Numbered from the stretch's first letter, positions 15,504-38,361 are shown. The stretch: 53,844 nt of DNA from Bryobacterales bacterium (GCA_040902925.1 JBBDWJ010000014.1:1-53844); one strand, 5' to 3'. Notes: generated by a model from the sequence alone, not told the origin. Numbers and translations: made by a program.

Positions 15504-17123
15504 TTATGGATTGGGCTGCAGCAACGCGAACGCCACCACGTTCGACCCCGCCGCTACCGCCACATACTGCTTGCCGCGCACTGCATACGTAATCGGAGAA
15601 GCGCTGATGCGGGCGCCGTTGTTGAAATGCCAGAGCGGCTTGCCCGTGGCGGCGTCGAGCGCTGTCAGGAATCCCTGGTCGTCGCCGGCAAAGATCAGCC
15701 CTCCCGCGGTCGAGACCAGTCCGGCTCCGTAATGCCGCGAGCCGACCTGCTCGTACTCCCACTGCATCTTGCCCGTGGCCGGGTCGAGCGCGCGCACGAA
15801 CATGCGCCAGGGGTCGGCCGGGCTCTCCACATACCCCGTGCCCATGAATCCAAACCCGCCGGGCCGGAACTCCTGTTTGGCCTTGTAGCTGATGCCGCAG
15901 CCTTCCTTCACAGCCAGATAAAACCAGCCCGTAGCCGGGTTGTACGCGGGCGACATCCAGTTGGTGGCGCCCGAAGTCGAGGGGCACACCAGGTTGCCCT
16001 GAATGGTCGGCTCGACGCCGGGCACGCGAATCGGACGCCCCTCGGCCGTCAGCCCCGTCGCCCAGTTCAGCTTGTCGATGAACGGGCTGCCGTGCAGGAA
16101 CTCGCCGGTGACGCGGTCGAGCACGTAGTAGAAACCGTTGCGGTCGGCATGCAGCAGAAGCTTACGCGGCTTACCATCGAACGGCGCATCGATCAGCACG
16201 GGGATCTCGACGGAATCCCAATCGTGAACATCGTGCGGCGTGAACTGAAAATACCATTTCAGCTTGCCCGTATCCGCGTCGAGAGCGACCACCGACTCGG
16301 TGTACAGGTTGTCGCCCAGGCGCGCGTCGCCATCGAAGTCCGGCGCGGGGTTGCCGATGCCCCAGTAGAGCAGGTTGAGCTGCGGATCGAAGCTGCCACT
16401 CAGCCAGGTGCCGCCGCCGCCGGTTTTCCACGAGTCGCCCGCCCAGCTTTCGTGACCGGGCTCGCCAGGCCGGGGGATGCTTTCCCAACGCCAGATGCGC
16501 TCGCCGGTCTTGGCGTCGTAGGCGTCGAGCCAGCCGTTGAGGCCATAGTCACCGGCCGCAACGCCCATCAGGATCTTGCCGTTGATAGCGAACGGCGCCG
16601 CCGGCGAGTAGTAGCCGTCTTCGACCTCGGCAACTTTCGCCTGCCAGACTTGGGCACCCGTCCTGGCGTCGAGCGCGACGAGATGGGCGTCGGGCGTGCC
16701 CACGTAGACAAGGTCGCCCAGCACGGCGACGCCGCGGTTCGGCCCGCGCTCGATGACGACGTTCTGCGGGGGCGCGGACTCACGCGACCAACGCCAGATG
16801 CTGCGGCCCGTGCGCGCGTCGATTGCATGGACCTCGTTCGGCTCACTGATATACATGACACCGTCGACCACCAGCGGAACGGTCTCGAGCCTACTGCCGC
16901 TGGGCACCGCGAAAATCCAGGCCGGCGCCAGCCCGGCGACGTTGCCGTGGTCGATCTGGTGAAGCGGGCTGTGGCGCTGTGAGTCGTAGGTGCGGCCGTA
17001 GGTCAGCCAGTTCTGGTCCGGGGGATCGAGCAAATCGTTGTACGCTACCTGCCCGCTCGCGGCGGTGCACCACAGAGCCGCCGCTACGATCACCTCGAGG
17101 AGTTTTGGGTTTGGATTTCGCAT
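15504..17123 (-). CDS. Periplasmic PQQ-type alcohol dehydrogenase-like quinoprotein (acidobacterial type)
   Basis: Signal peptide, NWLTYG...QRHSPL.QI, Trp-docking propeller repeats (ALDARTG..W), GDNLYT, FQFTPHDVHDWD, TNW.SPAY. Confidence 0.92.
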   Translation of the reverse strand: MRNPNPKLLEVIVAAALWCTAASGQVAYNDLLDPPDQNWLTYGRTYDSQRHSPLHQIDHGNVAGLAPAWIFAVPSGSRLETVPLVVDGVMYISEPNEVHAIDARTGRSIWRWSRESAPPQNVVIERGPNRGVAVLGDLVYVGTPDAHLVALDARTGAQVWQAKVAEVEDGYYSPAAPFAINGKILMGVAAGDYGLNGWLDAYDAKTGERIWRWESIPRPGEPGHESWAGDSWKTGGGGTWLSGSFDPQLNLLYWGIGNPAPDFDGDARLGDNLYTESVVALDADTGKLKWYFQFTPHDVHDWDSVEIPVLIDAPFDGKPRKLLLHADRNGFYYVLDRVTGEFLHGSPFIDKLNWATGLTAEGRPIRVPGVEPTIQGNLVCPSTSGATNWMSPAYNPATGWFYLAVKEGCGISYKAKQEFRPGGFGFMGTGYVESPADPWRMFVRALDPATGKMQWEYEQVGSRHYGAGLVSTAGGLIFAGDDQGFLTALDAATGKPLWHFNNGARISASPITYAVRGKQYVAVAAGSNVVAFALLQPNP

Positions 17124-17132
17124 CGTCGAGAT

Positions 17133-17936
17133 CTAACGCGCAAGCCGTGTCAAATACGCCAGCAGGTCACGAAACTCCAGCGCCGAGAGACGGCGATCGT
17201 AGTCCGCGGGCATCAGCGAGCGGTCCGCGATTTCCACCCGCGCGACCTCAGCGACGCTTAACATGTGCAGCCGCCCTTCTTCGCTCAAGAGCTGATAGGA
17301 GAAGTTGTGCCGGTTCTTGAGCACACCGCTAATCCGTTCTCCTCCGTTGGTCGTGATCGTGGCCGGTTCATATCCCTTCGGAGGATGCGGCTTCGGCACG
17401 GTTAACGCCTCGCGCAACGCCCGCAGCGACAGCTTTGCCGCCACATCCGACAGATCTGGACCGAGCAGTCCGCCTCGTCCGTGGACCATGTGGCAGCGGC
17501 CGCACTCCGCTGGCCCCCAGAACAGCGCGGCGCCGTTTTTGCGGTCGCCATCCGTCGGCAAGTCGGCGGCCCTGGCCCGCAGGCTCCGGACGTAGGCGAC
17601 AATTCGCCAAACGTCGTCCTCGGCGAGGCCCGTCGGTGGCATGCCCGTGCCGGGAATGCCGTTGCGCACCGCGTCGAACAGCTCGGCGTCGGTACGCCGA
17701 ACATAGGAGCGCGCCGCGCCCAGAGCCGGTGCGCGATCGCCGACCGCGCCATCCACTCCATGACACACGGTGCAGGTTTCGTTGTAGAGGTCACGTCCGC
17801 GACTTACGACCTCGGCTCCCGCGCCGAGCGGATTGTTTTCGGCGCCGTACGTGGAAACGCCGCCGGCACTCAAGCAGAGCAGTCCCGCAAGAGAGAGGAC
17901 AGCGATCCTTCGGCGTTGTCGATTGAGCACCAGCAT
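17133..17936 (-). CDS. Dihaem c-type cytochrome with putative haem-binding C-terminal domain
   Basis: CTVCH and CGRCH, GIPGTGMP, GPDLS, SLMP. Signal peptide after ATG 17936; ends 9 bp before the quinoprotein gene. Confidence 0.88.
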   Translation of the reverse strand: MLVLNRQRRRIAVLSLAGLLCLSAGGVSTYGAENNPLGAGAEVVSRGRDLYNETCTVCHGVDGAVGDRAPALGAARSYVRRTDAELFDAVRNGIPGTGMPPTGLAEDDVWRIVAYVRSLRARAADLPTDGDRKNGAALFWGPAECGRCHMVHGRGGLLGPDLSDVAAKLSLRALREALTVPKPHPPKGYEPATITTNGGERISGVLKNRHNFSYQLLSEEGRLHMLSVAEVARVEIADRSLMPADYDRRLSALEFRDLLAYLTRLAR

Positions 17937-18037
17937 GTCTCCGCTACCGGAGATTATGCCAGGGTTGGTCCCTCGAGGCTTTCCTCGAAGGGACCGGCCC
18001 TCGTTTTGGACAGTACGACGCCGCCTAGTGGCACAAC

Positions 18038-21000
18038 TCAAAAACGGTACTTCAGAGCGAACTGAATGATGCGGGCGTCGCCGGCCATGCCAGCCGCTCC
18101 TTGACTGCTGGTGCGGATCACACCGAATGTGTTCGGTGCGGTGATCGCGATCCCCGGAGCCCCCAGGTTCACGTGATTGAACAGATTGAAGAACTCGGCG
18201 CGGAACTGCAAGGCGTTCGACTCCGAGAAGCGAAACTCCTTATTCGCCGAGAAGTCCACCTGGGCCAAGCCCGGCAGATAGATCGGCATTCGCGAAGCGT
18301 TGCCAAACCGGCCGTCGGGCGGGCGCGTGAATGCGGCCGTGTTGAACCAGCGATCTCGCGAGCGGTCTCCACGCGAAAGCTGCGCTTGCTGGCCCGCGAC
18401 CACGTCGGGGCGCGAGCTGACGCCCGTGACGGTGATGTCTCCAACGCCGGAGAGCGTCGTGGCGAAGCCGGTCTGCAAGGTTGTGATCGTCGATACCTGC
18501 CAGCCGCCCAGCAGGGCTCGCGTCACCGCGGATGTTGCGCCGCGGAAAAACGGAATGTCGTAGATCATCGATACCGACATGCGGTGAGCGATGTCGAATG
18601 TGGCCGGCGCTTTCTCGGCCGAGAGATTGAAGAAATCCTGCAATCCGCCAAGAAACGTGCCGCCGCCCACCGAGCTGATATCGGCGTTGCTGAGGGCCTT
18701 CGACCAGGTGTAAGCGCCGAGGAACGACAGGCCGCGGCCCACGCGCCGCTCGGCTTTGAGTTGCAGCGAATGGTAGATCGAGTGGCCGATCGCCTTGGTC
18801 ACGCCAATGCGATCGAAGCCCTGAAAGGGCCGCCGCGAGGCCAGCGACGGCGCGCCAGCCGGCACGATCGGCTCCAGCGGACGGTTGCCGTCAAACGTCA
18901 TCGTCAGGCCGGTGCCTTTCGATCCGACGTAGCCGAGATCGACGAGCACGTCGAGCGGCAGCTTTTTCTGCAGGGTCAGGTTCCACTGCTGCGTGTATGA
19001 CGTGTGCTGGTCAGGGTCGAATCCCCCTGCGCCGAACAAGCCCGCGCGGGTCTGCCCGCTGCCCTGAAAGGCGGTTTCGACATCGATGGGGTTGTTGAAC
19101 GTTCCCGTGAAGGAGAACGTCTTGACGATCGGCGGGTTCAGCGTCAGCGTGGTCCAGGTGTTGGTGATCTCCGGCGTGAAATAGACGCCGTAGCCGCCGC
19201 GCACTACGAAATCCTGCGACCAGGGCGTCTTGTAAGCGAAGCCGAACCGCGGGCCGAAGTCGTTCTTGTCGCTGTTGACCAGGTTGGTGGGGACGCCCGT
19301 GGTATCGGCGATATCGGGGAAGCCTTTGAACCATTGCGCCGACGGCGTGAAGCCCGGAACGGCGCCATTGAGGCCGAAGTTCACCGCGGTCCCTCGTTGG
19401 GACGGCGCCGTGAAGTACTCATACCGCAGGCCCCAGTTGAGCGTCAGGTTCGGCGTTGCCTTCCAGTCATCCTGGAAATAGTAGGCGTGCCAGAAGTTGT
19501 TCATGCGCGTGGCGAACGGTTCGACGCTGACTTCGGCGCTGGTGGCCAGGCCCAGCAGGAAGGTGGCGAACTGGTGCTCGCGGACCTGCGCGGCGCCGCC
19601 CGACGCAGTCCGGCCATCGAAAGTGAAGCTGCCGCGCGGATTCACCGATTCGTCGAAGGTCCAGTTGCGGCGGGCGAACAATCCCCCGAATTTGAACGAA
19701 TGGCTGCCGCGAATCCAGGTCAGGTTGTCGCTGAACTGCCAGAGCTGATTGAGCCGGTCACGCGGGCCGATGCCGCGCACGGTCGGCAACGTATAGCCCG
19801 CGCCGAAGCCCGGAGCGCCGAAATTGCGGGGGTCAGTCGAAACGCCCGGGATGCCGATCTTGTTAGCGATATCGAGTTCGGGGTTGTCTGTGGTGCCGAA
19901 AAACTCGTGCTCAAAAAACCGGTGCCAGCCGATGCGCGCTTCATTGATCAGCGTGGATGAGAAGATATGCACGTCGGCCAGGCTTAGGTTTTGCGCCCGG
20001 CCTGTATTGCCGCGCGTGTCCCAAGTGAAGTTAGGCACCGTGTCGTCGCTTTGTTCGTTGTACATATAGCTGCCGTACATCGAGTTCTTCTCGGTGAACC
20101 GGTAGTCGGCGCGGCTGATGTACTGGTCCTGGTCGATCGGCGCCGAGGCAGCCGGCGGACGATAATTCACCGCAGCTTCATTGGCGTTCGGTGCGGGCAC
20201 GTAGTCGCGCAAAAAAGTGCTGGCGTAGTTCCTGATGCGGGAGCCGGGAATCTGGTTGTTGGCAAATGGCTGCCCTGTGGCCGGGTCGAAAATCGTGCCC
20301 GAAAAGGCGGAGAAATCGCCTGTGCGGTAGGCCGTGGGCGGAATGAACAGGTTCTGCTGCCCTTGGCCGGCGATGAGGCGGCCTGATTCCCAGTTGAAGA
20401 AAAAGAATGCCTTCTCCTTCACGATGGGGCCGCCGAGGTTCGCGCCATACTGATTGCGGTTCAGCCTCGCTGGTTTGGCGTCTGGAGAATACGGCGTGAA
20501 CGCAGCAACCGCCGAGAACGCATCATTGCGATTGAACCACCAGGCGCCGCCGTGAAAGGCGTTCGTGCCAGCTTTCGTCATCAGGTTGACCTGTCCGCCG
20601 GGAGCTCCACCTACGTCGGAAGAATAGGTAGACGACTGCACTTTGAACTGTTCGATGGCGTCGATCGAGGGCGAGAAGCTAAAACTATAGCTGTCGAGAT
20701 CCATCGCCTCGATGCCGTCATAGTAGAAGCGGTTCTGCGTGTCACGCGCGCCGTTGGCCGACATGCCGACGGCCTGCCCCACCGAGCCGCGCAAGCGCCG
20801 CACGGTGATCGAGCCGGGCGTGCCGGGGTTGACTCCCGGCGTCAGCAGCGCAAGCTGCACGAAGGACCGGCCATTGAGCGGCAGCTCGACGACCTTCTGG
20901 CTGTCGATGACGGTGCCGACCGTGGCGTCTTCGGTCTGCAGGTTCAACGCGCCCGCCTCCACCGAGATCGTCTCGGTTACCTCGCCCACTCGGAGCACGA

Positions 21001-21331
21001 TATTCAGGCGCAGCACCTGATCGACATTGAGCGCGAAGTTCGTCACCTCGGATTTCTGGAACCCGGCGGCTTCGACCGCGAGCCGGTACGTGCCGATCGC
21101 CAGGAACGGGAACTCGTAGTGGCCGACCTCGTTGGTCGTCGTTGTGCGCGTCTGGTTCGTCTGGACGCTAGTAATCGTTACGTTCGCAGCGGCGACGACC
21201 GCTTCGGTCGGGTCGGTGACCGTTCCGACTACTTTGGCCGTGATCGCCTGCGAATAGGTTCTCGCGGGGATCAGGACAACAAGCATGGCCAACACCATGC
21301 ATAGGAGCAATACATACTTCCTGTTTATCAT
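18038..21331 (-). CDS. TonB-dependent receptor with N-terminal carboxypeptidase-regulatory-like domain (Oar-like)
   Basis: Signal peptide, GTVTDPT..V, LPLNGRSF.QL, FQDDWKATPNLTLNWGLRYEY, DFGPRFGFAY, C-terminal RIIQFALKYRF. Confidence 0.95.
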   Translation of the reverse strand: MINRKYVLLLCMVLAMLVVLIPARTYSQAITAKVVGTVTDPTEAVVAAANVTITSVQTNQTRTTTTNEVGHYEFPFLAIGTYRLAVEAAGFQKSEVTNFALNVDQVLRLNIVLRVGEVTETISVEAGALNLQTEDATVGTVIDSQKVVELPLNGRSFVQLALLTPGVNPGTPGSITVRRLRGSVGQAVGMSANGARDTQNRFYYDGIEAMDLDSYSFSFSPSIDAIEQFKVQSSTYSSDVGGAPGGQVNLMTKAGTNAFHGGAWWFNRNDAFSAVAAFTPYSPDAKPARLNRNQYGANLGGPIVKEKAFFFFNWESGRLIAGQGQQNLFIPPTAYRTGDFSAFSGTIFDPATGQPFANNQIPGSRIRNYASTFLRDYVPAPNANEAAVNYRPPAASAPIDQDQYISRADYRFTEKNSMYGSYMYNEQSDDTVPNFTWDTRGNTGRAQNLSLADVHIFSSTLINEARIGWHRFFEHEFFGTTDNPELDIANKIGIPGVSTDPRNFGAPGFGAGYTLPTVRGIGPRDRLNQLWQFSDNLTWIRGSHSFKFGGLFARRNWTFDESVNPRGSFTFDGRTASGGAAQVREHQFATFLLGLATSAEVSVEPFATRMNNFWHAYYFQDDWKATPNLTLNWGLRYEYFTAPSQRGTAVNFGLNGAVPGFTPSAQWFKGFPDIADTTGVPTNLVNSDKNDFGPRFGFAYKTPWSQDFVVRGGYGVYFTPEITNTWTTLTLNPPIVKTFSFTGTFNNPIDVETAFQGSGQTRAGLFGAGGFDPDQHTSYTQQWNLTLQKKLPLDVLVDLGYVGSKGTGLTMTFDGNRPLEPIVPAGAPSLASRRPFQGFDRIGVTKAIGHSIYHSLQLKAERRVGRGLSFLGAYTWSKALSNADISSVGGGTFLGGLQDFFNLSAEKAPATFDIAHRMSVSMIYDIPFFRGATSAVTRALLGGWQVSTITTLQTGFATTLSGVGDITVTGVSSRPDVVAGQQAQLSRGDRSRDRWFNTAAFTRPPDGRFGNASRMPIYLPGLAQVDFSANKEFRFSESNALQFRAEFFNLFNHVNLGAPGIAITAPNTFGVIRTSSQGAAGMAGDARIIQFALKYRF

Positions 21332-21785: not shown

Positions 21786-22760
21786 TTAACGTGGTGTGTC
21801 GCCGGTCAAGGGGGCGGCTTGCGCGGCAGGCCGGGCATGTTCGCGGATGTGCTCTGGCAGACCAGTGGCGCGGCCCAGGTAGTTGAACTCCTCGGCATGG
21901 CGCAACCCGTGCTTGAGTCCCACCGCGGCGGCGAGGTCTTCGAGGTAAGCGCGAATCAGTTGGACGGTGGAGTTCTCGTTGAGCTCGCGCAGCAGCTCAT
22001 GCGGCCTGCCTGCGAGATCGAGACGCTGGCGCGTTTGAAGCGCATAACGACTGTTCGAAGTCTTGAGTTCCAGTATGGCCCGCACCTTGCGGTCGAACGT
22101 CGAACCGATGTCCATATGCCGCAATTGGGCCTGCCCTTCGCCGCCCTCTCGCGGCCGGTAAGGGCGATGAGGAATGTAGAAATAATATTCGCGAGCAGCA
22201 TACCCGCCATAGCCGATGTAGGTCATCTCCTGAACGAAATAGCCGCCTCCGCCGTAAGGCGCCTCTTCCGCCATGCGGCCCACGCGGTAAACGTCGTCGT
22301 CATTGAGGTAATGCGCATACCAATCAGGGAAAAACATCGTCTGCGGCTTATAGAATCGCACCATCGTCATGACCTGATTTCGCATCTCGCTGCTGGAGAT
22401 GTAGGCCAGCTCGCCGCTCTTGTGCCCGAGGTTGAGCACTTCCTTGACGCCGAGCTGCCGCGCGGCGCGTTCACCCTCCTCATTGTTGGCCAGGCGCGTG
22501 GCGGCTGGTCCAAGCCCGGTCGAGTCCTTCTCGTCGTTGCCGAACTGCAGGACATAAACGGGCCGGCCTTGCTCGATCATTTTTGCCAGCGTGCCGCCGG
22601 CGCCGAAAAGGTAGTCGCGGGCCGAAGCGGTAATGACCAGCACGGCATTCGGCTCGGGTTTTTCCGCGGCCGCTGCCGCCGGCGCGAAGACGCCAAGCGC
22701 GGCCAGAGCGCTCAACAGTCCTCGCCGCAGGGTGTAGGTGCTCATTTGCCATCCACTCAT
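21786..22760 (-). CDS. PIG-L/LmbE deacetylase-fold protein A, metal-binding motifs degenerate; Tat-like leader
   Basis: VLVITASARDY (in place of HxDD), GGTLAKM, NDEKD, E..RAA..LG, K...I, AEEF. LRRGLL leader. ATGA overlap with the upstream paralog. Confidence 0.8.
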   Translation of the reverse strand: MSGWQMSTYTLRRGLLSALAALGVFAPAAAAAEKPEPNAVLVITASARDYLFGAGGTLAKMIEQGRPVYVLQFGNDEKDSTGLGPAATRLANNEEGERAARQLGVKEVLNLGHKSGELAYISSSEMRNQVMTMVRFYKPQTMFFPDWYAHYLNDDDVYRVGRMAEEAPYGGGGYFVQEMTYIGYGGYAAREYYFYIPHRPYRPREGGEGQAQLRHMDIGSTFDRKVRAILELKTSNSRYALQTRQRLDLAGRPHELLRELNENSTVQLIRAYLEDLAAAVGLKHGLRHAEEFNYLGRATGLPEHIREHARPAAQAAPLTGDTPR

Positions 22761-23689
22761 AACTTGGGCACGGCTCGCTCGAGAGCGTGAGGCGGAACGG
22801 CCTCACCGGGACCAACGTAGTTGAACTCTTCGCCGTGCTGGAAACCGTGCTTCTCACCCATCGTCGCCGCAAGTTGATGGACCCAGGCGCGCGCCAGGGC
22901 CTGAACCAGCTTCTCGTCGAGCGGCTCCAGAAGCTCGCTCGATCGTACGGCGGCGTTCAAACGCGCGCGCAGGACCTGCGCCCGAAACCGGTTGCGCGTG
23001 CGCAGCATCGCCAGAGCCGTGGCCTTGGCGTCGAGCACGCTGCCGATATAGACGCCGAGAAGGCGCGCGCTCTGCTCGCCGCCTTCCGCGCGGCGGTAAG
23101 GCCGGTCCACTGGATAGTAGTAGACTTCCGGAACGCTGTGAGGCGTCAGATCCATGCGCGCCAGCTCGACTGCGAAAGTAGAGGCGCCGCTGTACCCCCA
23201 AGCCTCCTCGGCCATGCGGCCCACAAAATAAATGTCCCAGTCGGGCTGAAAGTGAACGTAGGGGTCAGGAATGAAAATCTTCTTCGGGCGCAGGTGGCGG
23301 ATCAGGGCGAACAGTTGGTTCCGCATTTCCGTGCTCGAAACGTAGCCGATCTCACCCGACTTATGCTCCATGTAGACCGCGTCGGCGAAACCCAGGTACT
23401 CAGCGGCAGCCTTGCCTTCCTGAATGTTGGCCCGTCGGGTCTCGGCGGGTGACAGTCCCGCGGATTCCTTTTCGTCGTTGCCGAAATGAGCAATGTGAAT
23501 TTCGTATCCATCCAGCGCCATTTGGGCCAGGGTCCCGCCGGCGCCGATCAGGTAGCCGGCTGAATCGGCGGTAACCACGAGAACTTTCGCGGGGACCGCG
23601 GTTTCGGCGCGAAGCGGCGCCGGACTCGGCAGCATCATGAGCCCAAGCAGTGCCGCGCCGTGCAGCAACGTCGGTCGAAGGTCGGTCAT
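22757..23689 (-). CDS. PIG-L/LmbE deacetylase-fold protein B, metal-binding motifs degenerate; signal peptide
   Basis: VLVVTADSAGY, GGTLAQM, NDEKE, EGKAAAEYLG, PDPY, GEEF. Clearly paralogous to A. Confidence 0.8.
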   Translation of the reverse strand: MTDLRPTLLHGAALLGLMMLPSPAPLRAETAVPAKVLVVTADSAGYLIGAGGTLAQMALDGYEIHIAHFGNDEKESAGLSPAETRRANIQEGKAAAEYLGFADAVYMEHKSGEIGYVSSTEMRNQLFALIRHLRPKKIFIPDPYVHFQPDWDIYFVGRMAEEAWGYSGASTFAVELARMDLTPHSVPEVYYYPVDRPYRRAEGGEQSARLLGVYIGSVLDAKATALAMLRTRNRFRAQVLRARLNAAVRSSELLEPLDEKLVQALARAWVHQLAATMGEKHGFQHGEEFNYVGPGEAVPPHALERAVPKL

Positions 23690-23788
23690 TGCGTCACCGG
23701 ATTCTCTGCCAACTCTACGCTATCCGTCCAAGTCAGGCATTGTTTCATCCGGACCCTTTGATAGTCTAGGATAGCTGGCATTGCGTAG

Positions 23789-24733
23789 ATGACGACCCGG
23801 CCGATCAACAGAAATCGTTGGATCGCAGCGCTTGTACTCTGCGGCAGCGTTTGCGCTGTTGCCGCGCCGTTGCCCTTGGGAGACATTCCGCCGGGGAAAG
23901 CATTCCTGGTCATCCAGCCGCATCACGATGATCACACCTGGCAGTATGGGTTCGGCGGTCTGATTGCAAAGATGGCCGACGCCGGCTGGCGCGGAACCTA
24001 TGTACGCGTGACGAACGACGAGAAGGACGGCCCGCACGGTTGGGCCAAGAATGACCTCGTCAACGAGGCCGAAACTCTCGAAGCCACCAAAAACCTCGGC
24101 ATCGAGCGGGTCGTCAGCCTCAACTGGCGGAACGATCACATGGACTCGGTCCCCATCAACGAGCTGCGGGCGCAGCTCATCCTCTTGATTCGTCAGTTAC
24201 GGCCCGACGCCGTGATGGCCTACAACCCCTGGGGACACTATGACCGCAACCCTGACCACCGGATCGTCGCTCGCGCGGTGGGGGAAGCCGTATGGCTGGC
24301 AGGTTACGCCAATGCCTACCCCGAGCATTTCAAGCTCGGGCTGGAGCCGCATCGCGTGCCTTATCGCTACTACTCGCAGCGCGGCGACTACGGCAAAGGT
24401 TACGAGCCCAACATTGCGATCGAGCTGAACGAGAGCCAGGTGGCGCGTAAAGCAAAATCCTATTGGCTGCATCGCAACGTGCGGCTGAGGCCCGAAACCG
24501 CGCGCGGCATCCGTCAGGCGCTCGAACAGCGCGGCCTGACAATCCCTGAGTTGGAAGCACTTGACGATGAGCAAGCGACCCAGAAACTGCAGGAATGGTC
24601 CATGGAATGGATCTCCGCGAAGCGGGGTAGTGAAAACGGCGTGAAGTACGCCGAGGTCTTTTATTTCATGGACGAGTGGCACGATCTGCCGGGGCTGCGC
24701 GAGTACCTGGATAAAAACGCGGTGGCGAAATGA
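23789..24733 (+). CDS. PIG-L/LmbE family deacetylase C, metal ligands retained; signal peptide
   Basis: IQPHHDDH, GGLIAKM, TNDEKD, RPDAV, NPDH, YAEVF. Confidence 0.88.
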   Translation: MTTRPINRNRWIAALVLCGSVCAVAAPLPLGDIPPGKAFLVIQPHHDDHTWQYGFGGLIAKMADAGWRGTYVRVTNDEKDGPHGWAKNDLVNEAETLEATKNLGIERVVSLNWRNDHMDSVPINELRAQLILLIRQLRPDAVMAYNPWGHYDRNPDHRIVARAVGEAVWLAGYANAYPEHFKLGLEPHRVPYRYYSQRGDYGKGYEPNIAIELNESQVARKAKSYWLHRNVRLRPETARGIRQALEQRGLTIPELEALDDEQATQKLQEWSMEWISAKRGSENGVKYAEVFYFMDEWHDLPGLREYLDKNAVAK

Positions 24734-25734
24734 AAGGGCATCGTCGCTTCTGCCGTGCCGCGAATCTCTCCGGAAGGTCTATCCGTCTTCGCCTGACCTT
24801 GTTCCGGCTCGGCATTTGCGCCGCTGCTCTACTCGCCATGTTCGTCGTTCCTGGCATACACGCCGAGGCCCTGCCGCTCGCAAAGCTTCCCCGCGGCAAG
24901 GTCTTCATGGTCATCGAGCCTCACCACGACGACCACACGACCGATTACGGAATGGGCGGCTTGATCGCGCGCCTCATCGACGAAGGCTATACCGGCTATT
25001 ACGTACGAGCGTCGAACGACGAGAAGGATGGCCGTCATGGCTACCCGCTGAACGACATGATCAACCTCAAGGAGAGCCGGGCGGCTACGAAGATTCTGGG
25101 CATCGACGAGGTGATCAGCCTGAACTGGCGCAACGACTATATGGATCCGATTCCGCTGCAGGAGTTGCGCGGCCAGTTGATACTGCTGATCCGCAAATAC
25201 CGGCCCGATGTCGTGCTGGGTCACGATCCCTGGGCGCATTACGACCGCAACCCGGATCATCGCAAGGTAGCGCGGGCGCTGGCGGAGGCTTTTTGGATGG
25301 CTGGTCAAGCCAACGTCCACCTCGAGCACCTGCGTTTAGGATTGAAGCCGCACCGCGTGCCCTACCTTTTCCTCAAGGCGCGCGTGGATTACGGACGCGG
25401 TCATTGGCCCAATGTGGCGGTCGAACTGACCGAATCGCAGGTACGCCGTAAGCAGAGAGCGTATTCCGCGCATCGCAACGTCTACGCCAACCCCGCCACC
25501 GCGGGTGCGGTGCGGCGCCAGTTGGCCGGCGAGAACCTGGTTGTGCCCGAGATCGAGGGTCTCAGCGACCAGGCGGCCGCCGTGCTGTTTGAGGAATGGC
25601 ACATGGACTGGATCTCGGGCAAACGCGGCGCCGAAAACGGCGTTCGTTACGCCGAGGTGTACTGGTTCCGCGATGAATTCGATCATCTGCCGGGGCTGGA
25701 GGAATACATCCGGCGGAATGCGGTTCAACAATGA
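24730..25734 (+). CDS. PIG-L/LmbE family deacetylase D, metal ligands retained; signal peptide
   Basis: IEPHHDDH, SNDEKD, RPDVV, NPDH, YAEVY. ATGA-coupled to C and very similar to it. Confidence 0.88.
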   Translation: MKGHRRFCRAANLSGRSIRLRLTLFRLGICAAALLAMFVVPGIHAEALPLAKLPRGKVFMVIEPHHDDHTTDYGMGGLIARLIDEGYTGYYVRASNDEKDGRHGYPLNDMINLKESRAATKILGIDEVISLNWRNDYMDPIPLQELRGQLILLIRKYRPDVVLGHDPWAHYDRNPDHRKVARALAEAFWMAGQANVHLEHLRLGLKPHRVPYLFLKARVDYGRGHWPNVAVELTESQVRRKQRAYSAHRNVYANPATAGAVRRQLAGENLVVPEIEGLSDQAAAVLFEEWHMDWISGKRGAENGVRYAEVYWFRDEFDHLPGLEEYIRRNAVQQ

Positions 25735-25766
25735 GGGTCAAGTCGACGATGCTCGCTGGAGGCCAA

Positions 25767-26678
25767 ATGATAACGAGGCTCGCCGCAATGTGTTTGGCGG
25801 CTATTGTGCTAGCGGCCGGTCTCTGCGCTCAGCCGCAGCCGTCGAGTGGGAACCGCGTCGTCCTTGTGATCACCGCGGACGCGAGCGACTACATTCTGTC
25901 CGCCGGCGGGGCCATCGCCTCCATGATCGAAGACGGCGCGACGGCATATCTCATCCGCACCACGAACGATGAGAAAGACTCCTGGGAGTTGTCTCCGGAA
26001 GAAACGGCGCGCCGCTACAGTGACGAGAGCGAGCAGGCCGCCAAAATCCTTGGCATCCAGGAAGTGATCTCGCTTGGCTACCGCGCGGGCGAGCTCGCTG
26101 CGGTCTCCCACACCGAGCTGCGAGACCGGCTGATGTTCTACGTCCGGCTTTACAAGCCCGCAGTGCTATTCCTTCCGAATCCCCATGCGGAGTACGTGGA
26201 AGTCCTCGACCGGTTTTACACGGGCAAAGCCGCCGAAGAGGCGCAGCGCGTGGCCGCGCTCGAAAACTTTCAGCCGCCGTTTTCGGAGGTCGGGCTGACG
26301 ACACACATCATCGGGGAACTGTACTACTACGCTCAGCCGTTCGACCCGCGCCGGCGCGAGCCGGAAAGCACTCCGACGTTTGTTCCTCAGCCGAAGACCG
26401 TCGGCATTTCAGCAGCGTTCGATAAAAAACTGCGCGCCGCTCGGGCCCTCTACACCGCGAACTACAGCATGGCGATGAACATCAAGAAGCGTCTCGACAA
26501 CACCGGCCGACGGCTGCCGCTACTGGACGCCGTCGACAGCGAGTCGGTTAATCAACTTGTGGAGATCAATCTTAGGAAGCTAGCAGAGATCGCCGCCCGC
26601 GACACATCCTACGAGCTGGCCGAGGAGTTTCACTACGCCGGGGTGGAATACCAGATCCCGTCGAGCTATTTGAAATAG
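25767..26678 (+). CDS. PIG-L/LmbE deacetylase-fold protein E, metal-binding motifs degenerate; signal peptide
   Basis: VLVITADASDY, GGAIASM, TNDEKD, ESEQAAKILG, AEEF. GGAGG RBS before ATG 25767; the track start 25731 is also possible. Confidence 0.8.
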   Translation: MITRLAAMCLAAIVLAAGLCAQPQPSSGNRVVLVITADASDYILSAGGAIASMIEDGATAYLIRTTNDEKDSWELSPEETARRYSDESEQAAKILGIQEVISLGYRAGELAAVSHTELRDRLMFYVRLYKPAVLFLPNPHAEYVEVLDRFYTGKAAEEAQRVAALENFQPPFSEVGLTTHIIGELYYYAQPFDPRRREPESTPTFVPQPKTVGISAAFDKKLRAARALYTANYSMAMNIKKRLDNTGRRLPLLDAVDSESVNQLVEINLRKLAEIAARDTSYELAEEFHYAGVEYQIPSSYLK

Positions 26679-26817: not shown

Positions 26818-28212
26818 TCAGCGAGTTGACCCCGCGCCTACAGGCACTTGAATGTATCGCTCCGCCGGCGGCGCGAAGAAGACGAGTACCCGGCCGGCGA
26901 GCTTTTCTCGACTGTCCGGTGACCCTGCCAGATGAAACGATGTTTGGGCCAGAAAATGGGTGGCTCCCCGGGGAACGTGATAGTGAAGCAGTGATGGCGC
27001 CGGGATCTCCATCATCGCGTCTTGTTCACTCCAGTCATCAGGCGATGCAAGCGCGCCGGCAGACCCCACGAAATGAGCGGGCCTTTCCTCAGAAAGCGAA
27101 GCCTCGTTTCCTGGCTCTCCACGAAATCGCGGCTTTCGCCAGCGGATCCTGCCGTTTCCCCGCAGCGAAGAATCCGTCTCGAAGACGAAGTAGATATGCC
27201 GGTATCTCTGCGGTGGAATCGCCACTTCGAGATGGAACGGCTGCGCGGCATCCAGAGTGATCGGGCCAGTATCGTATACAGGTTCCGCGTTTCCCTGAAC
27301 GCTGAGGCCGCTTTGCTGCTCCCAATTGGCGGGCTTATCGAAATCCTGATTTGCAGCGATCTCTTCCCAGCTCGGTCTTGACGATTCCACGCCCTCTGGA
27401 GGGACTTCCAGGCCGGCAACCCACGCCACTCCGTTCAGCAACGCCTTTCGGAAGTTGTCATCGCGATAGTTGTGATGGGAATGAGCGCCGGAAAAGCCAA
27501 AGCCGCGCCCACCAGCCGGGCGTTCGTAGGCCCACGCGAGCGTGTGAAGGTCACCACGAAGGACGCTTTCGCGAACGCCGGGATTACCGGAGCTAGGGCC
27601 GTCCGCGCGGAGCAAAACGGTCAGCGGAGGCCGCGCCTGGAGGATCGGAGTGACGCCCTTCAAACCGGGCGCGAAACGCATATTGAAATACCACTCATCG
27701 TAGACCGAGAATGGCTGCAGACCGTTTGCCGCTGCATGAACGGGAAAATTCGCGAACTCGGGAGCCCAATCCGGGTTTACCGACAGTCCCCTTTCGTAAA
27801 CCCCGCCGATCCACTCCCTGACTGCGTCCGCGGCGCGACCCGGAGGCGGTTCGAGGGCGAAGTGAATCAGGGCGATACCCACTCCACGATTGGCTAGGGC
27901 GCTTACTTGATCGAGATGATCAAGAGCGGCATGAGCGCTGCCATCGCAATCGATGACCAGGGCATCGGCATCCGCGAAAGTATCCGCATCGGGCCAGCCT
28001 TTGTCGGCGATGACGGTTTCGAGTTGAGGCCATTGTTGCTTGAGGGACCGGGCCAGCAGCAGGAGTCCGGCCCTGTGTTCGTGCATCCCATAGCCGTGAC
28101 TAGGAGTGCCCGGGATGAAAATGATCTTCGTGGGGCCCGCGGCGACAAGTGGCACGGTCAGCCACAACAGAATCGTGAAGCGCAAAAACACGATGCCTCT
28201 CAGAATCCTCAT
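26818..28212 (-). CDS. Secreted ThuA-like (class I glutamine amidotransferase-like fold) protein with a C-terminal beta-rich domain
   Basis: GTPSHGYGMHEH, GVGIALIHFA, DEWYFNM, AWAYERPAGGRGFGFSGAH..N.R..LLNGVAW. Signal peptide from ATG 28212. Confidence 0.8.
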   Translation of the reverse strand: MRILRGIVFLRFTILLWLTVPLVAAGPTKIIFIPGTPSHGYGMHEHRAGLLLLARSLKQQWPQLETVIADKGWPDADTFADADALVIDCDGSAHAALDHLDQVSALANRGVGIALIHFALEPPPGRAADAVREWIGGVYERGLSVNPDWAPEFANFPVHAAANGLQPFSVYDEWYFNMRFAPGLKGVTPILQARPPLTVLLRADGPSSGNPGVRESVLRGDLHTLAWAYERPAGGRGFGFSGAHSHHNYRDDNFRKALLNGVAWVAGLEVPPEGVESSRPSWEEIAANQDFDKPANWEQQSGLSVQGNAEPVYDTGPITLDAAQPFHLEVAIPPQRYRHIYFVFETDSSLRGNGRIRWRKPRFRGEPGNEASLSEERPAHFVGSAGALASPDDWSEQDAMMEIPAPSLLHYHVPRGATHFLAQTSFHLAGSPDSREKLAGRVLVFFAPPAERYIQVPVGAGSTR

Positions 28213-28475
28213 CAACGGTTCTCCGAAGGTTCCAGCCGAGCTGCTGATGATCCTATCACGGTTTCTGAATGAGCCAGATCTCGTCCGCACGCCGAAGCCG
28301 TCGCTGGCAAACCGCTCAAGATCTGGTCTGTCCGTTCTAGAATCGCCCCCTGCCGCAGCGCTGGTTGGGAGATCAGCGGCCGCGCCATGGTGGGACGAGG
28401 AAACTGCTTGATAAGGCGATTCGACGGCCGTACCGCAGACTAGAGGGTGGCCGCGCCGTTTCCGCGGGATCTAAT

Positions 28476-30787: not shown

Positions 30788-32335
30788 ATGACGACAGGCA
30801 TCCCCACGCAGTGGGACCGGGAAACCGACGTGGCGGTGATCGGCGGCGGCGGCGCAGGTCTCGCGGCGGCGCTCGAAGCCGCACAGCACGGAGCCAAGGT
30901 GATGCTCCTCGAAAAATGCCCTCGCCTCGGCGGCACCACGGGAATCGCGGTCGGGTCGTTTACCGCCGCGGGGACGTCGCTGCAGCGCGCCGCGCACATC
31001 CAGGACGATCCTGATTCTCACTCCGAGGACATGGGCAAGTTCGCCGGTCACCGGGATGCCAGCAACAATCATGCGCTACGCTCCCTGCTGGCCCGCAACG
31101 CGGCCGACACTCTCGAATGGCTGATCAACCTCGGGGTTGCGTTTCACGGCCCTTTTCCGGAACCCCCGAACCGCCTGCCTCGAATGCACAATGTTGTGCC
31201 GAATGGAAAAGCCTGCATCGCTGTCCTGCAAAACAAGGTTCTACGGCTGGGCTCTGAAGTCTTGGTCAACCACCGCGTGGAACGGCTGTTTCGCGAAACC
31301 GACGGTGCGGTGATCGGTCTCGAAGCGATCCACGGCGGAGTATCCGTGCGTGTGCGGAGCCGTCACGGAGTTGTTCTGGCGGCAGGGGACTATTCGAGCG
31401 GCAACGGCATCAAGTCCCGCTATCTTCCACTCGATGTCGCGGCGGTGGAAGGCGTCAACCCGAACTCGACGGGCGACGGTCACCGGCTCGCCGAGTCGGT
31501 CGGCGCCAGTCTCGTCAACATGCAACTCGTCTATGGCCCGGAGATTCGTTTCGTTCCCCCGCCACGGCCGCCGTTCGCCCAGTTGCTGCCGGGTAACCCG
31601 CGGTTGGCGAGGGTCCTGGGACGATGCGTAGACCTGCTGCCAAAAGCGGTGCTGCATCGGATCATCCGCGGCCTTCTCGTCACCTGGCAGCACCCCGAGA
31701 AAAGCTTGTTTACCAAAGGCGCGGTGCTGATCAACCGCAACGGGCAGAGGTTCATCGACGAGTGCGCGGAACCCGAACTGGCCGTCTGGCGACAGCCTGA
31801 AAAACTGGCCTATTGCATTCTTGACGGGACGCTGATGGAGTCGTTTTCGCGGTGGCCGAACTACATTTCGACGGCCCCGGGAATCGCCTACGCCTACATC
31901 CAGGACTACAAACGCCTGCGGCCCGACATCTATGCCGAGGCCCCAACCCTTGCCGCGCTCGCGCGCCGGATCGACGTGAGTCCGGCTGCGCTTGAAGCAT
32001 CGATCGGCGATTACAACCGTGCAGTGCAAGGCGCTGCGCCGGATCAATTTGGCCGCCGCTGCTTTGGTCCGCCGCTGACAAAGGCGCCCTACTGCGCGTT
32101 GGGTCCGGCCAAGAGTTGGCTCGTCACGACCGAAGGCGGCGTCCGAATCAACCAGAGCATGCAGGCGCTGGATTCGGAAGACCGCGTCATTCCCGGCCTT
32201 TACGCCGCTGGTTCCAATGGAATGGGCGGTGTCGTCGCTTGGGGGCACGGGCTTCATTTGGCATGGGCATTCACCAGCGGGAGGATCGCTGGCAGGAGCG
32301 CCGCGACGGCGTATGGGGCGGCCGCGGTGAATTGA
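30788..32335 (+). CDS. FAD-dependent oxidoreductase, FAD_binding_2 family (fumarate reductase / 3-ketosteroid dehydrogenase-like)
   Basis: IGGGGAGLAAA, LEK...GGTT, NSTGDG, G.RFIDE, TEGGVRIN, GLYAAG, AFTSGRIAG. No signal peptide. Confidence 0.88.
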   Translation: MTTGIPTQWDRETDVAVIGGGGAGLAAALEAAQHGAKVMLLEKCPRLGGTTGIAVGSFTAAGTSLQRAAHIQDDPDSHSEDMGKFAGHRDASNNHALRSLLARNAADTLEWLINLGVAFHGPFPEPPNRLPRMHNVVPNGKACIAVLQNKVLRLGSEVLVNHRVERLFRETDGAVIGLEAIHGGVSVRVRSRHGVVLAAGDYSSGNGIKSRYLPLDVAAVEGVNPNSTGDGHRLAESVGASLVNMQLVYGPEIRFVPPPRPPFAQLLPGNPRLARVLGRCVDLLPKAVLHRIIRGLLVTWQHPEKSLFTKGAVLINRNGQRFIDECAEPELAVWRQPEKLAYCILDGTLMESFSRWPNYISTAPGIAYAYIQDYKRLRPDIYAEAPTLAALARRIDVSPAALEASIGDYNRAVQGAAPDQFGRRCFGPPLTKAPYCALGPAKSWLVTTEGGVRINQSMQALDSEDRVIPGLYAAGSNGMGGVVAWGHGLHLAWAFTSGRIAGRSAATAYGAAAVN

Positions 32336-32390
32336 AGTTGAGAGTTCGCTTCGTTTCAAGGTGGGGATACCCACAGAGAGAGGGTCAAAG

Positions 32391-35300
32391 ATGATCTACG
32401 GAATCGTTAGGAGATGTTTGGAGTTTGCGTTGCTTTTCGCCATTGCCGCCACTGCAGCATTCGGCCAAATCAACACGGCCGCTATCGTCGGAAGTGTTTC
32501 GGATCAGTCGGGCGCGATGATCCCGGACGCGTCCATCATACTGGAAAACGTCGCCACGCAAGCCCGGCGCACGACGGCATCGGACGCGACAGGCAGCTAC
32601 AGCTTCCAAGTTCTGCCGGTCGGCGCCTATCGCATGATGGTCGAGGCGCCGGGGTTTAAGCGCGCGGAGCGTGCCGGCATTCGCCTGGAAGCTAGCGACT
32701 ACCCGCGCATCAACATCGTGCTCGAGCTCGGAGAAGTCAGCGAAAGCGTAACGGTCACCGAAGGGATCTCACTCGTCAACACACAGAAGGTAGAGGGCGG
32801 CACCGTGATCCTCAACCAGCAGGTGGTCGATATGCCCCTCAACGGCCGTGACTTCAGCCAACTGATACAGCTCGAACCGGGCGCGGTGTTTAATTCGGGC
32901 AGGGTCTTTTTCAACGGGCTTACCAGCGACGGAGTCAACATCAGCATCGACGGCACCGACGCCAATCAACCGGACCGGCCTTCCACCAACTACACAGGAA
33001 GCTTCGGTGGAACGTCGCAGTTGAGCATTTTGAGTATTGAATTCATTGAAGAATTCAAGACAACCAATGGCGTCTTTTCGGCGGAAGTTGGCCGCGCCGC
33101 GGCCGGCGGGGTCAACATCATTACCAAGTCCGGCACGAACGAACTCCACGGTAGCGTGTTTGAGTTCCTTCGCAACGACCACCTCGACGCACGAAACTTC
33201 TTTGCCAGCAGGAAAGACTCTCTGCGAATCAACCAGTATGGAGTCGCGGTCGGCGGCCCGATTGTCCGCAACCGGATATTCTTCTTCGGCGGCTGGGAGG
33301 GCGCCCGTGTCCGGCGCGGCGTTCAAATCTTCGGAAATGTTCCTACCGTGAGCATGCGCGAGCAAATGTTGCAAACTACACCGGCTTACGGCCACAGGGT
33401 TGTAGGGCCTGTCGGCGAGGCTCCATCGATGCTTGACCTGCTGCCGCTCCCGAATGTGCCCGGCGGCAATGAGTTCCTGGGATCCCACCGGCGCTCGGAG
33501 AGCCGCACGGAAGATCAGGACGTGTTCCTCGCGCGCCTGGACTTTCATATCAGCGACAACGACACCGTCTCGGTGCGATACAACATTATGGATTCGGAAA
33601 ACTTCATCCCGGATATCTCGCCGATCAACGGCACGGTCTATCCTCCGCAGGACCGCTATGGAACGCTATCCTGGTCGCACTTGTTCGGAGCGACCATGCT
33701 CAACGAGTTGCGCCTTGGCGTCGTGAAAACGGACCTGCCACGCCGCCAACAGGCGTTCATTGACGGAACGCAATCGCCCGGCGCCATCCAAGGAGTATTC
33801 AGCCATGACCGGCAGGAACTGCTCCAGGCGAACGGCGGCAGTGTCACGTTTGCTGACAATCTTTCTGTCTCGAAGGGAGCCCATTCGCTGAAGTTCGGCG
33901 TCGAGGACAGGGAGTTTCACTATGGGCGGTGGAACTTTGAGAATCCGCACTACCGCTTCAATAACGTGCAGCAGGTCATCGCCGGCACCCCGGAGAGCGT
34001 GTTCATCACGGTCGGAAACCCCCTGCGCCGTTACGAATCGAGTCAGTGGGGCGCGTATATCCAGGATGACTGGAGAATCCGTCCTAACCTGACGCTCAAC
34101 ATCGGTTTGCGATATGAATACTACTCGCCGCCGGACGAAACAATCGGCGGGTATATGTGGAATGTTGTGGACAGTCCGTTTGGAGCGTTTGCACCCCAAG
34201 GCACGCGTCCGTGGGAGCCTGACCGCAACGATTTCGGACCGCGCTTCGGGCTGGCATGGGATATCAACGGAGACGCCAAGACCGTTGTTCGCGCGGGGAT
34301 TGGAGTTTTCTACGCTCCGAACACCTTCCGGGAATTGACGATCCTGGGCAACCCCCCGGAACTGCCGTATGACGTCACTGTTTTTCGTACTGCGTTTCCC
34401 AATCTTTCGTATCCCACGAATATTCTTGACGGTAGCTTTGATCCCAGAAACGTTCCGGGCGGCGTGAGCCGGCAAACCTTCGACCGTTTTCAACGAACGA
34501 CCTATTCGGAACAGTGGACGCTGAACGTGCAGCGCGAAATCGTACGGGACCTGGCGTTCGAGGTCGGCTACGTTGGCAATCGGGGACTGAAGATTCTTGC
34601 CACGCATTTCTTCAACGAAATCGAGCCCGAACTGCCTGGTCCCGAGTTCCAGCGCGCCCCCGAGCTAGGACGAATCTCCTACCAGGAGCATTCCGCGAAC
34701 TCAACTTTCCATTCCCTGCAAGCTTCACTCAAGAAGCGCATGAGCCGGGATTTCATGTTCAATGCTCACTACACCTGGGGCCATGGAGTCTCCTACGGCG
34801 GAATCGATCAGGGCACTGCTTTTGGGAACGCTCAGATGCAAAACATGCAAGATTGGGCGGGCTCGCGGGGACGGTCGGCCTTCGATATCCGGCACAATTT
34901 TACGCTGAACTTCGCCTGGGACATGGCGTTCGACCGCTGGCTTGGCGCCGACTCAGGGTTCGCGCGGAAGCTTCTCAACGGCTGGCAATTCAACACCATT
35001 GTCTCGATGCGCACAGGCACACCGATCCGCATCCAGTCAGGCCGCGACAACCGCGGCAACAACGACACCGGTCCGCAGCGGCCTGATTACGTGGGTGGAG
35101 AAGTCCTTCTGGACAACTACCGGGAGAGCTTAAGGTATTTGAACAGAGATGCCTTTGCGCAACCTTGTGCCGCGCGCGGCTTAACCGCTCCGTGTGGCCT
35201 GTTCGGGAATTTCGGTACGAATGCTGTCAGCGCGCCGGGGACACAGGTGTTCGATTTGTCCCTCTTCAAGACGACGCAAATAACCGAGCGGGTCCGGCTG

Positions 35301-35453
35301 CAGTTTCGGACGGAGATGTTTAACGCCTTCAACCGTGCCAATTTCTCGAGTCCGTCCGGTTCGCGGGTGCAAATCACCGACAGCCAGTTTGGCGCCATCA
35401 CGGCGGCCGGCCTGGCACGCGAGATCCAGTTCGGATTGAAGTTGCTTTTCTAA
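32391..35453 (+). CDS. TonB-dependent receptor with N-terminal carboxypeptidase-regulatory-like domain
   Basis: Signal peptide, GSVSDQSGA, MPLNGRDF.QL, TKSGTNELHG, QDDWRIRPNLTLNIGLRYEY, terminal REIQFGLKLLF. Confidence 0.95.
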   Translation: MIYGIVRRCLEFALLFAIAATAAFGQINTAAIVGSVSDQSGAMIPDASIILENVATQARRTTASDATGSYSFQVLPVGAYRMMVEAPGFKRAERAGIRLEASDYPRINIVLELGEVSESVTVTEGISLVNTQKVEGGTVILNQQVVDMPLNGRDFSQLIQLEPGAVFNSGRVFFNGLTSDGVNISIDGTDANQPDRPSTNYTGSFGGTSQLSILSIEFIEEFKTTNGVFSAEVGRAAAGGVNIITKSGTNELHGSVFEFLRNDHLDARNFFASRKDSLRINQYGVAVGGPIVRNRIFFFGGWEGARVRRGVQIFGNVPTVSMREQMLQTTPAYGHRVVGPVGEAPSMLDLLPLPNVPGGNEFLGSHRRSESRTEDQDVFLARLDFHISDNDTVSVRYNIMDSENFIPDISPINGTVYPPQDRYGTLSWSHLFGATMLNELRLGVVKTDLPRRQQAFIDGTQSPGAIQGVFSHDRQELLQANGGSVTFADNLSVSKGAHSLKFGVEDREFHYGRWNFENPHYRFNNVQQVIAGTPESVFITVGNPLRRYESSQWGAYIQDDWRIRPNLTLNIGLRYEYYSPPDETIGGYMWNVVDSPFGAFAPQGTRPWEPDRNDFGPRFGLAWDINGDAKTVVRAGIGVFYAPNTFRELTILGNPPELPYDVTVFRTAFPNLSYPTNILDGSFDPRNVPGGVSRQTFDRFQRTTYSEQWTLNVQREIVRDLAFEVGYVGNRGLKILATHFFNEIEPELPGPEFQRAPELGRISYQEHSANSTFHSLQASLKKRMSRDFMFNAHYTWGHGVSYGGIDQGTAFGNAQMQNMQDWAGSRGRSAFDIRHNFTLNFAWDMAFDRWLGADSGFARKLLNGWQFNTIVSMRTGTPIRIQSGRDNRGNNDTGPQRPDYVGGEVLLDNYRESLRYLNRDAFAQPCAARGLTAPCGLFGNFGTNAVSAPGTQVFDLSLFKTTQITERVRLQFRTEMFNAFNRANFSSPSGSRVQITDSQFGAITAAGLAREIQFGLKLLF

Positions 35454-35459
35454 ACCCCG

Positions 35460-35501
35460 CCAGGGTGGCGTCGCGCCCCTCGACGCCACCCTGGATCTTT
35501 T
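35460..35501 (+). terminator. Intrinsic terminator / stabilising hairpin after the TonB receptor
   Basis: Perfect 14-bp stem ccagggtggcgtcg / cgacgccaccctgg, 7-nt loop, followed by atctttt. Confidence 0.75.
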
Positions 35502-35589
35502 GGCCCGGCCTGGGAATCGTCCGGGACAACCCGGCGCGGCGGCGCAGCGGATGCGTGCATCGTGCCACAGTTGGAGAAGAGGTGCTTTG

Positions 35590-36654: not shown

Positions 36655-36729
36655 GTTTCGACTTCAGAGCACGGGCCCAAAGCGCCGCGCCGGTGGGCGG
36701 CTGTTTCACCACGCCCGTCAATCGCGAAT

Positions 36730-37128: not shown

Positions 37129-37210
37129 AGGAAGACCCATCACCAACCGGCCAATGCGGGTCTTTGCGGAGACGATCACAATCAATATCTGACGACACGG
37201 AGGCAATAGC

Positions 37211-38353: not shown

Positions 38354-38361
38354 GTAAGTCC

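Follow-up and report, generated by a model that had tools for sequence, protein, structure and literature searches.

The subject of this work is a group of five adjacent genes, here called A to E, that encode proteins of the PIG-L/LmbE family in a Bryobacterales bacterium, a soil-dwelling member of the Acidobacteriota. The window, i.e., the whole stretch of DNA analysed (53,844 nucleotides, GCA_040902925.1 JBBDWJ010000014.1:1-53844), belongs, as contig C14, to an assembly of 6.39 Mb with a completeness of 91%. Calling of open reading frames (ORFs) bore out the layout described in a first-pass annotation made from the sequence alone, namely five intact adjacent ORFs in two divergent units. A (21786-22760, 324 amino acids (aa)) and B (22757-23689, 310 aa) lie on the minus strand in the order B-A, and C (23789-24733, 314 aa), D (24730-25734, 334 aa), and E (25731-26678, 315 aa) follow one another on the plus strand. 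The A/B, C/D, and D/E pairs each overlap by 4 base pairs (bp), and 99 bp separate the starts of B and C. This intergenic region (23690-23788) presumably holds the promoters of both units; a scan returned 0 promoter-like sites, and the sigma-70 consensus was not found between 23690 and 23788. The region gave no Rfam match, its alignment revealed no conserved element beyond a 93%-identical relative, and terminator-like sites in the scan were not above those in shuffled sequences. C and its paralog D were classed as putative exported zinc-type PIG-L/CE14-like deacetylases, and A, B, and E as putative exported PIG-L-fold paralogs lacking the metal triad.

We compared the five proteins with family profiles. 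All of them exceeded the gathering score of the PIG-L family PF02585 (28.2 bits), with 43.1 bits for A, 39.9 for B, 75.3 for C, 68.0 for D, and 47.5 for E, as the first annotation had supposed. The corresponding E-values range from 7e-10 to 8e-21 and therefore place family membership far beyond chance. Contrarily, the NCBIfam equivalog models for BshB1, BshB2, MshB, and Mca gave best scores of 44-58 bits against cut-offs of 182-277 (for BshB1, 52-58 bits against 182.5), indicating that the five proteins are not orthologs of BshB, MshB, or Mca. Public names are all generic ('PIG-L family deacetylase', 'LmbE family N-acetylglucosaminyl deacetylase'), and one homolog of E (P0374) bears the JGI automatic name '4-oxalomesaconate hydratase', which is annotation only. 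A profile search of 1.84 billion representatives yielded 6606 relatives at E<=1e-3 and only 116 at E<=1e-30. The NDEK/NPDH type makes up a broad part of the PIG-L family that is uncharacterised.

A was modelled with AlphaFold2 from 69 aligned rows, with a predicted local distance difference test (pLDDT) value of 89.4 and a predicted template modelling score (pTM) of 0.83. When this model was searched against the PDB with Foldseek, the top match was Dac, the archaeal N,N'-diacetylchitobiose deacetylase of family CE14 (8bgn, E 7e-17, target template modelling score 0.78), at about 21-22% identity. The next matches were LnmX, BC1534, BshB, the GalB hydratase, TT1542, and the teicoplanin and MshB enzymes, and ranks 1 to 38 were PIG-L-fold proteins throughout. 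The model thus predicts that A is an intact PIG-L fold of the LmbE-like, Rossmann-type alpha/beta kind, and the same fold would hold for B to E given their 26-46% identity to A. By sequence, the closest solved relative of C is again Dac (3wl4, E 2e-17), with the triad aligned. Export leaders had also been proposed for all five proteins, and such N-termini are present: a leader of 35-58 residues, charged positively at its start and hydrophobic thereafter (Kyte-Doolittle mean of the best 11 residues 1.9-2.9), comes ahead of the first strand. The first 45 residues likewise contain such a hydrophobic window in 63 of 67 homologs of the A type, 50 of 56 of the E type, and 51 of 56 of the D type. These leaders suggest that all five proteins are exported and periplasmic. 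Export of A by the Tat pathway was considered and dropped, the arginine pair of its leader not being kept in orthologs (the L011 sequence).

The five proteins differ in their metal sites. In a five-way alignment, GG, NDEK, LG, and AE[EV][FY] are common to all, and C and D carry PHHDDH and NPDHR, whereas the corresponding motifs are TASARDY and DDDVY in A, TADSAGY and DWDIY in B, and TADASDY and VLDRF in E. This agrees exactly with the earlier description of HxDD and DH as kept in C and D and replaced in the other three. Residues His40, Asp42, Asp43, and His151 of Dac align with H44, D46, D47, and H157 of C. The Asn of NPDH sits at the position of a His that is not a ligand, and C and D therefore keep the full His-Asp-His triad together with the catalytic Asp. 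The second motif of C and D is thus a variant, as had been noted, but its ligand His is retained. As far as can be judged from sequence, every residue that a PIG-L hydrolase requires is present in both proteins. Conservation follows the same line, since H65, H66, D67, D68, and H69 as well as N174, P175, D176, H177, and R178 of D are invariant in 56 rows, and HHDDH and NPDHR are invariant in 12 C-type rows too; across the C and D rows, the second motif was reported as NPDH[RK].

At the positions of ligand 1, general base, ligand 2, and ligand 3, the residues are S/R/D/V in A (S46, R48, D49, V157), D/A/G/I in B, and D/S/D/R in E, where D50 and D53 are kept and Arg161 replaces the second ligand His. 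According to a review (PMC4101496), HXD1D2+H is the metal motif of all characterised LmbE-like members, with two His and one Asp as ligands and D1 as the general base. Lacking it, A, B, and E were not filed as catalytic LmbE-like members. The former motif 1 of B varies among orthologs (TADSAGY, TADAQDY, TADGADW, TAGSADY, TANSGDY, TKDSADY), whereas A keeps R-D, and E keeps D..D and LDR. R48-D49 of A is at least 90% conserved in the 69-row alignment, which includes B and E of the window, and R48, D49, N75, K78, S115, E117, D146, W147, Y148, H150, Y151, and D156 are nearly invariant polar or aromatic residues. In E, D50, D53, D160, and R161 are invariant in 56 rows, as are R118, E121, and R207-R209. 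A C-terminal tail is present in all five proteins. Its His is at least 90% conserved in A, where it belongs to a P-x-H, 60-90% conserved in D, H or R in C, and absent in E, which ends in a conserved IPS-x-YL.

We then looked at the maintenance of the degenerate copies. With two metagenome relatives as references (L009 and L010, 93% and 85% identical), the ratio of nonsynonymous to synonymous substitution rates (dN/dS) was 0.11-0.14 for A and 0.10-0.21 for B, and 0.23-0.26 for the first 169 codons of C. A and B are thus shown to be under purifying selection, and 58 columns of E are invariant in 56 rows; the degenerate copies are maintained, as had been proposed. ORFs are intact in all loci examined. 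When clustered at 90% identity, E-type and D-type sequences form 327 and 390 clusters, respectively, at E<=1e-30, and A has 133 clusters at E<=1e-3; the A and E clusters share 60-93% identity. To see how the former active-site face has fared, we compared the four loops of this face with the remainder of the domain, using the same six genomes throughout. Mean pairwise identity was 0.71 in the loops versus 0.61 elsewhere for A, 0.69 versus 0.59 for B, and 0.87 versus 0.69 for E; the intact copies gave 0.87 versus 0.60 (C) and 0.87 versus 0.63 (D). Therefore, the face is still constrained in A, B, and E, though less enriched in conservation than in C and D.

Natural fusions join some of these types in one chain. 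In the B-A fusions (P0008-P0012 and P0121; 536-549 aa), a B-type half precedes an A-type half behind a single leader, and both halves are degenerate; the P0010 cluster has 12 members, and P0010 itself was found on 41 contigs. Two clusters of C-E fusions were detected (P0122/P0511 and P0499/P0512), in which a C-type half, 64-66% identical to C and carrying PHHDDH and NPDHR, comes first, and the E-clade half after it (42-51% identity to E) lacks a leader of its own. The E-like half of P0512 retains H..D..H while its base Asp is gone, and P0130 is similar, indicating that the E clade passes through intermediate states. In the AlphaFold2 model of P0010, both domains fold with the same order of strands and helices (mean pLDDT 78.8), but their mutual placement is not confident (pTM 0.50); in the alignment used (A6), single-domain B rows fell on the A half, and only 6 rows covered the N-terminal half. 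A complex prediction for C, D, and E, with E as partner, scored 0.20 and 0.16 against a mark of 0.32 and carries no weight either way. Mixed intact and degenerate motifs were also seen in P0123, P0124, P0132, and P0135, which hold two or three PIG-L domains. Three of these, P0124 (713 aa), P0132 (520 aa), and P0135 (565 aa), fall outside the A/B/E and C/D clades, and their domains pass from intact through half-degenerate to degenerate along each chain. Tandem PIG-L arrays that include dead domains may be more widespread among these relatives.

A maximum likelihood tree was built from 62 domain rows of at least 215 residues, with close homologs of A and shorter or incomplete rows left out. A and B form one clade (support 100/100), the E-type sequences another (100/99), and the two join in a clade of 12 rows (99/95), 11 of them without the triad; the exception, P0130, retains it. 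C and D fall together in a clade of their own (100/100), and each fusion half clusters with the type for which it is named (B, A, C, or E). This topology indicates that the site was lost in the sister lineage of C/D, possibly more than once.

To define the distribution of the set, 41 genomes of the same order, including that of the window, were searched. All four types of gene (A, B, C/D, and E) are present in one and the same group of 12 genomes (G000, G003, G007, G008, G012, G016, G017, G021, G028, G030, G032, and G038), which represent 9 of 27 genera and two of three families. At the thresholds used, none of the four types was found in the other 29, among them G001 of the same genus (94% complete) and three genomes of family f3 that are only 64-88% complete. 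As related genomes are not independent samples, this co-distribution is a pattern and not a statistic. When 300 other genomes drawn across the phylum were searched for E-type genes at 1e-60, none was positive; outside two families of one acidobacterial order, the set was not found. The first-pass annotation had proposed to look for conserved clusters of active and inactive copies, and the gene order shows such clusters: of 19 E-type genes, 18 have a zinc-type gene directly upstream on the same strand, the remaining one being located in an assembly of 1030 contigs. Conversely, an E-type gene is missing beside four of the zinc-type genes. B lies directly upstream of A in 12 of the 13 A loci fetched, all but L008 (G007). 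A/B-type genes divergently adjoin C/D/E-type genes in 7 of the 12 positive genomes (G000, G008, G017, G028, G030, G032, and G038), and G008, G017, and G028, of three other genera, have the identical B-A / C-D-E layout. In three genomes of f3 (G030:C988, G032:C36, and G038:C419), a single A/B-type gene is divergent to a zinc-type and then an E-type gene. We take this arrangement as the putative minimal unit, relative to which the A/B-type and the zinc-type gene are each duplicated in the genome of the window.

Five relatives also carry a second, more divergent module, in which one or two zinc-type genes are followed by an E-type gene 53-56% identical to E (G012:C1:5396223-5399030, G021:C175:51454-54261, G016:C4:2265054-2266897, G003:C12:2298686-2300538, and G007:C3:540300-542147). 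Lone A/B-like paralogs, 51-54% identical to A, occur besides. The family has therefore expanded repeatedly in those genomes.

Altogether, we favour a reading in which the locus encodes an exported de-N-acetylase, with C and D as catalytic subunits and A, B, and E as metal-less partner subunits of a hetero-oligomer, and we hold it tentatively, at a little short of an even chance. A, B, and E are probably non-catalytic partners of the intact copies, because they are conserved, always occur with intact copies, and are sometimes fused to them. The first-pass annotation had seen the ligand-less copies as maintained non-catalytic partners: the maintenance holds by dN/dS, and the partner role fits the co-occurrence in 12 of 41 genomes and the B-A and C-E fusions. 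Its label of a novel system was too strong, since all parts belong to the PIG-L family and no other gene is consistently linked.

The locus would then be a lineage-specific set of exported PIG-L/LmbE (CE14-like) paralogs acting together. C and D would be metal-dependent de-N-acetylases or amidases, while A, B, and E, from a sister clade that lost the metal ligands, would no longer hydrolyse and would serve as structural or substrate-binding subunits with the catalytic copies. A conserved Arg (R48 in A, R161 in E) probably fills the former metal site. The model for such a hetero-oligomer is Dac. This enzyme is a hexamer built as a dimer of trimers with a His40-Asp43-His151 triad (PMC9779004). 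About 20 N-terminal and 13 C-terminal residues of each subunit reach the substrate site of the neighbour, and the active site uses the neighbour's His259* (catalytic), Ile260*, and Gly255* (PMC9779004). By analogy, the tail of one subunit would complete the site of the next, and a metal-less subunit could finish its neighbour's site or lengthen the substrate groove. Kinship with Dac suggests a terminal N-acetylated amino sugar as substrate. In its most specific form, which we consider possible but rather unlikely, one A/B-type, one zinc-type, and one E-type gene would produce an obligate hetero-oligomeric exported deacetylase on the trimer-ring plan of Dac, in which two different dead paralogs would supply tail or substrate-binding elements and so complete, in trans, the catalytic subunits, of which there would be one or two. 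If true, no earlier complex of the LmbE-like superfamily would have contained a pseudoenzyme, and P0124, with its intact, half-degenerate, and degenerate domains, and the two-domain fusions would display the same architecture in one chain.

Several observations weigh against partner subunits. Strict conservation is lacking in C (H/R) and D (H/Y) for the tail His, which in Dac is supplied in trans. Many polar residues on the former active-site face of A and E are invariant, and such a conserved, polar pocket face fits ligand binding or other chemistry no less than an interface. The B-A module lies away from C-D-E in G003, G012, and G021, with A and B also apart in G007 and G016; having no intact site and being able to lie elsewhere in the genome, the B-A pair may be a separate entity. 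Moreover, no flanking gene is conserved among the loci. The flanks comprise rpoC, dnaG/rpoD, an ABC-F ATPase, a GT4 glycosyltransferase, a sulfatase, a SelA-like PLP enzyme, a formamidase-like protein, an S15 peptidase, and a TonB-dependent receptor; as they differ between genomes, the context yields no substrate. The S15 peptidase, encoded 3' of E in L002, L004, and L005, was rejected as a sixth component: close orthologs of it are also encoded by genomes that lack the PIG-L genes, and its sole counterpart in G000 is a paralog of 37% identity.

Alternatively, A, B, and/or E could function alone, as metal-independent or different-metal enzymes on the PIG-L fold or as soluble proteins that bind the same class of ligand, in either case at an earlier or later step than C/D of one pathway and outside any joint complex, which we consider possible but rather unlikely. 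The conserved pocket-face loops would be accounted for, as would the near-invariant polar and aromatic residues of A and the invariant D50, D53, R118, E121, D160, R161, and R207-R209 of E. The distance that can separate B-A from C-D-E and the E-clade members P0130 and P0512, with H..D..H and no base Asp, point the same way. The fold supports non-deacetylase chemistry as well, GalB (5cgz) being among the fold matches of A, and this also counts against partner subunits. Yet HXDD+H is the motif of every characterised LmbE-like enzyme (PMC4101496), the first motif of B varies among orthologs, and Arg at a ligand or base position in A and E looks like a typical filled, dead metal site. E-type genes, moreover, almost always stand behind a zinc-type gene (18 of 19), and C-E fusions exist.

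It is less probable still that B-A is a metal-less heterodimer of its own with a task other than deacetylation, for example one that regulates, inhibits, or chaperones the C/D/E enzyme or that serves as a binding module at the envelope, with only E as an enzyme subunit. Such a pair would be consistent with B-A fusions that hold two degenerate halves and no zinc-type domain, with transcription units distinct from C-D-E and apart in several genomes, and with the gene for a TonB-dependent receptor that comes next after A in three loci (the window, L002, and L010). Identity among these receptors is only 30-38%, though, which makes the link weak, and A/B-type genes accompany C/D/E-type genes in 12 of 12 positive genomes, as divergent neighbours in 7 of them. 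Finally, loss of the catalytic motif and the variable motif 1 of B would be expected if A, B, and E were functionless, redundant duplicates drifting to pseudogenes. Intact ORFs in all loci examined, dN/dS of 0.10-0.21, the 327 E and 133 A clusters at 60-93% identity, and synteny and co-distribution conserved across 9 genera make such decay very hard to believe.

We compared the favoured arrangement of catalytic and metal-less subunits with known systems. Dac (3wl4, 3we7, 8bgn) is closest to C by sequence and to A by fold, but it is a cytoplasmic homo-hexamer encoded by one gene, with HPDH and a TDGxxG loop, whereas here export leaders, NPDH, and an NDEK loop are found among five paralogs, three of which lack the triad. 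MshB, Mca, BshB, and TT1542/BC1534 share the Pfam family and the fold, and their HXD1D2+H motif is also in C and D. They differ in that A, B, and E lack this motif and that none of the five proteins reaches the equivalog cut-offs of MshB, Mca, or BshB; to our knowledge, MshB, Mca, BshB, and TT1542/BC1534 have no export leader. GalB is a zinc-dependent 4-carboxy-2-hydroxymuconate hydratase. Its structure (5cgz) matches the model of A (E 6e-12), and the fold can therefore change reaction type; the present locus has no aromatic-degradation context. As a general concept, pseudoenzyme subunits in paralogous hetero-oligomers resemble the situation described here, with active and inactive copies side by side, fused in some lineages, and an inactive copy under purifying selection.

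All characterised LmbE-like/CE14 proteins that we know of are single-gene metallohydrolases with one HXDD+H site. Literature searches, mostly at the level of titles and abstracts, found no metal-less or exported PIG-L/LmbE paralogs and no pseudoenzyme assembly in the superfamily. The set is new within the known PIG-L family but does not amount to a system of a new kind. A group of exported paralogs that is conserved although most of its members are site-less would add either pseudoenzyme subunits or new chemistry to the superfamily; it is a first candidate for a pseudoenzyme assembly among LmbE-like proteins, for which the natural fusions offer ready-made test constructs. The clades CE14_4 and CE14_5, labelled unknown, make up 34% of family CE14 (PMC13450560). 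E-type and D-type genes are abundant in soil metagenomes, from Bryobacterales-like Acidobacteriota, and what they do may therefore be of importance to the turnover of amino sugars or to modification of the envelope in a lineage that is common in soil.

Other genes were seen around the set. Downstream of A on the minus strand lie a CarboxypepD_reg/OMP_b-brl_4 TonB-dependent-type receptor gene (18038-21331), a cytochrome c gene that overlaps it by 4 bp at 18038-18041 (17133-18041), and, 9 bp from the latter, a gene for a PQQ beta-propeller dehydrogenase (15504-17123). The stretch 15504-21331 looks like an uptake-plus-periplasmic-oxidation operon. Beyond E (26818-28290 on the minus strand and 30788-42108 on the plus strand), many genes are typical of 3-keto-sugar routes. 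They encode a ThuA-like protein (490 aa), an FAD_binding_2 oxidoreductase, a second TonB-dependent-type receptor, two GFO/IDH/MocA oxidoreductases, two 3-keto-disaccharide hydrolase (PF06439) proteins, and a PQQ_2 propeller; none of these genes is conserved beside the PIG-L set in other genomes. In one relative (G007), three ORFs of equal length (264 aa; 893-1687, 5349-6143, and 16897-17691 of L007) flank the C-D-E module and look like insertion-sequence copies. Further along the window, a 1497-aa protein (42128-46621, minus strand) has the C-terminal 'putative glucoamylase' domain PF10091 as its sole Pfam match, its first 1250 residues being unannotated, and a second PF10091 protein of 448 aa is encoded at 50202-51548 on the plus strand. 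Near the other end (1029-3764, minus strand), a 911-aa protein joins an NDP-forming acyl-CoA synthetase (CoA_binding, Succ_CoA_lig, and ATP-grasp_5) to a C-terminal GNAT acetyltransferase domain, which we take to be the architecture of Pat-type protein lysine acetyltransferases.

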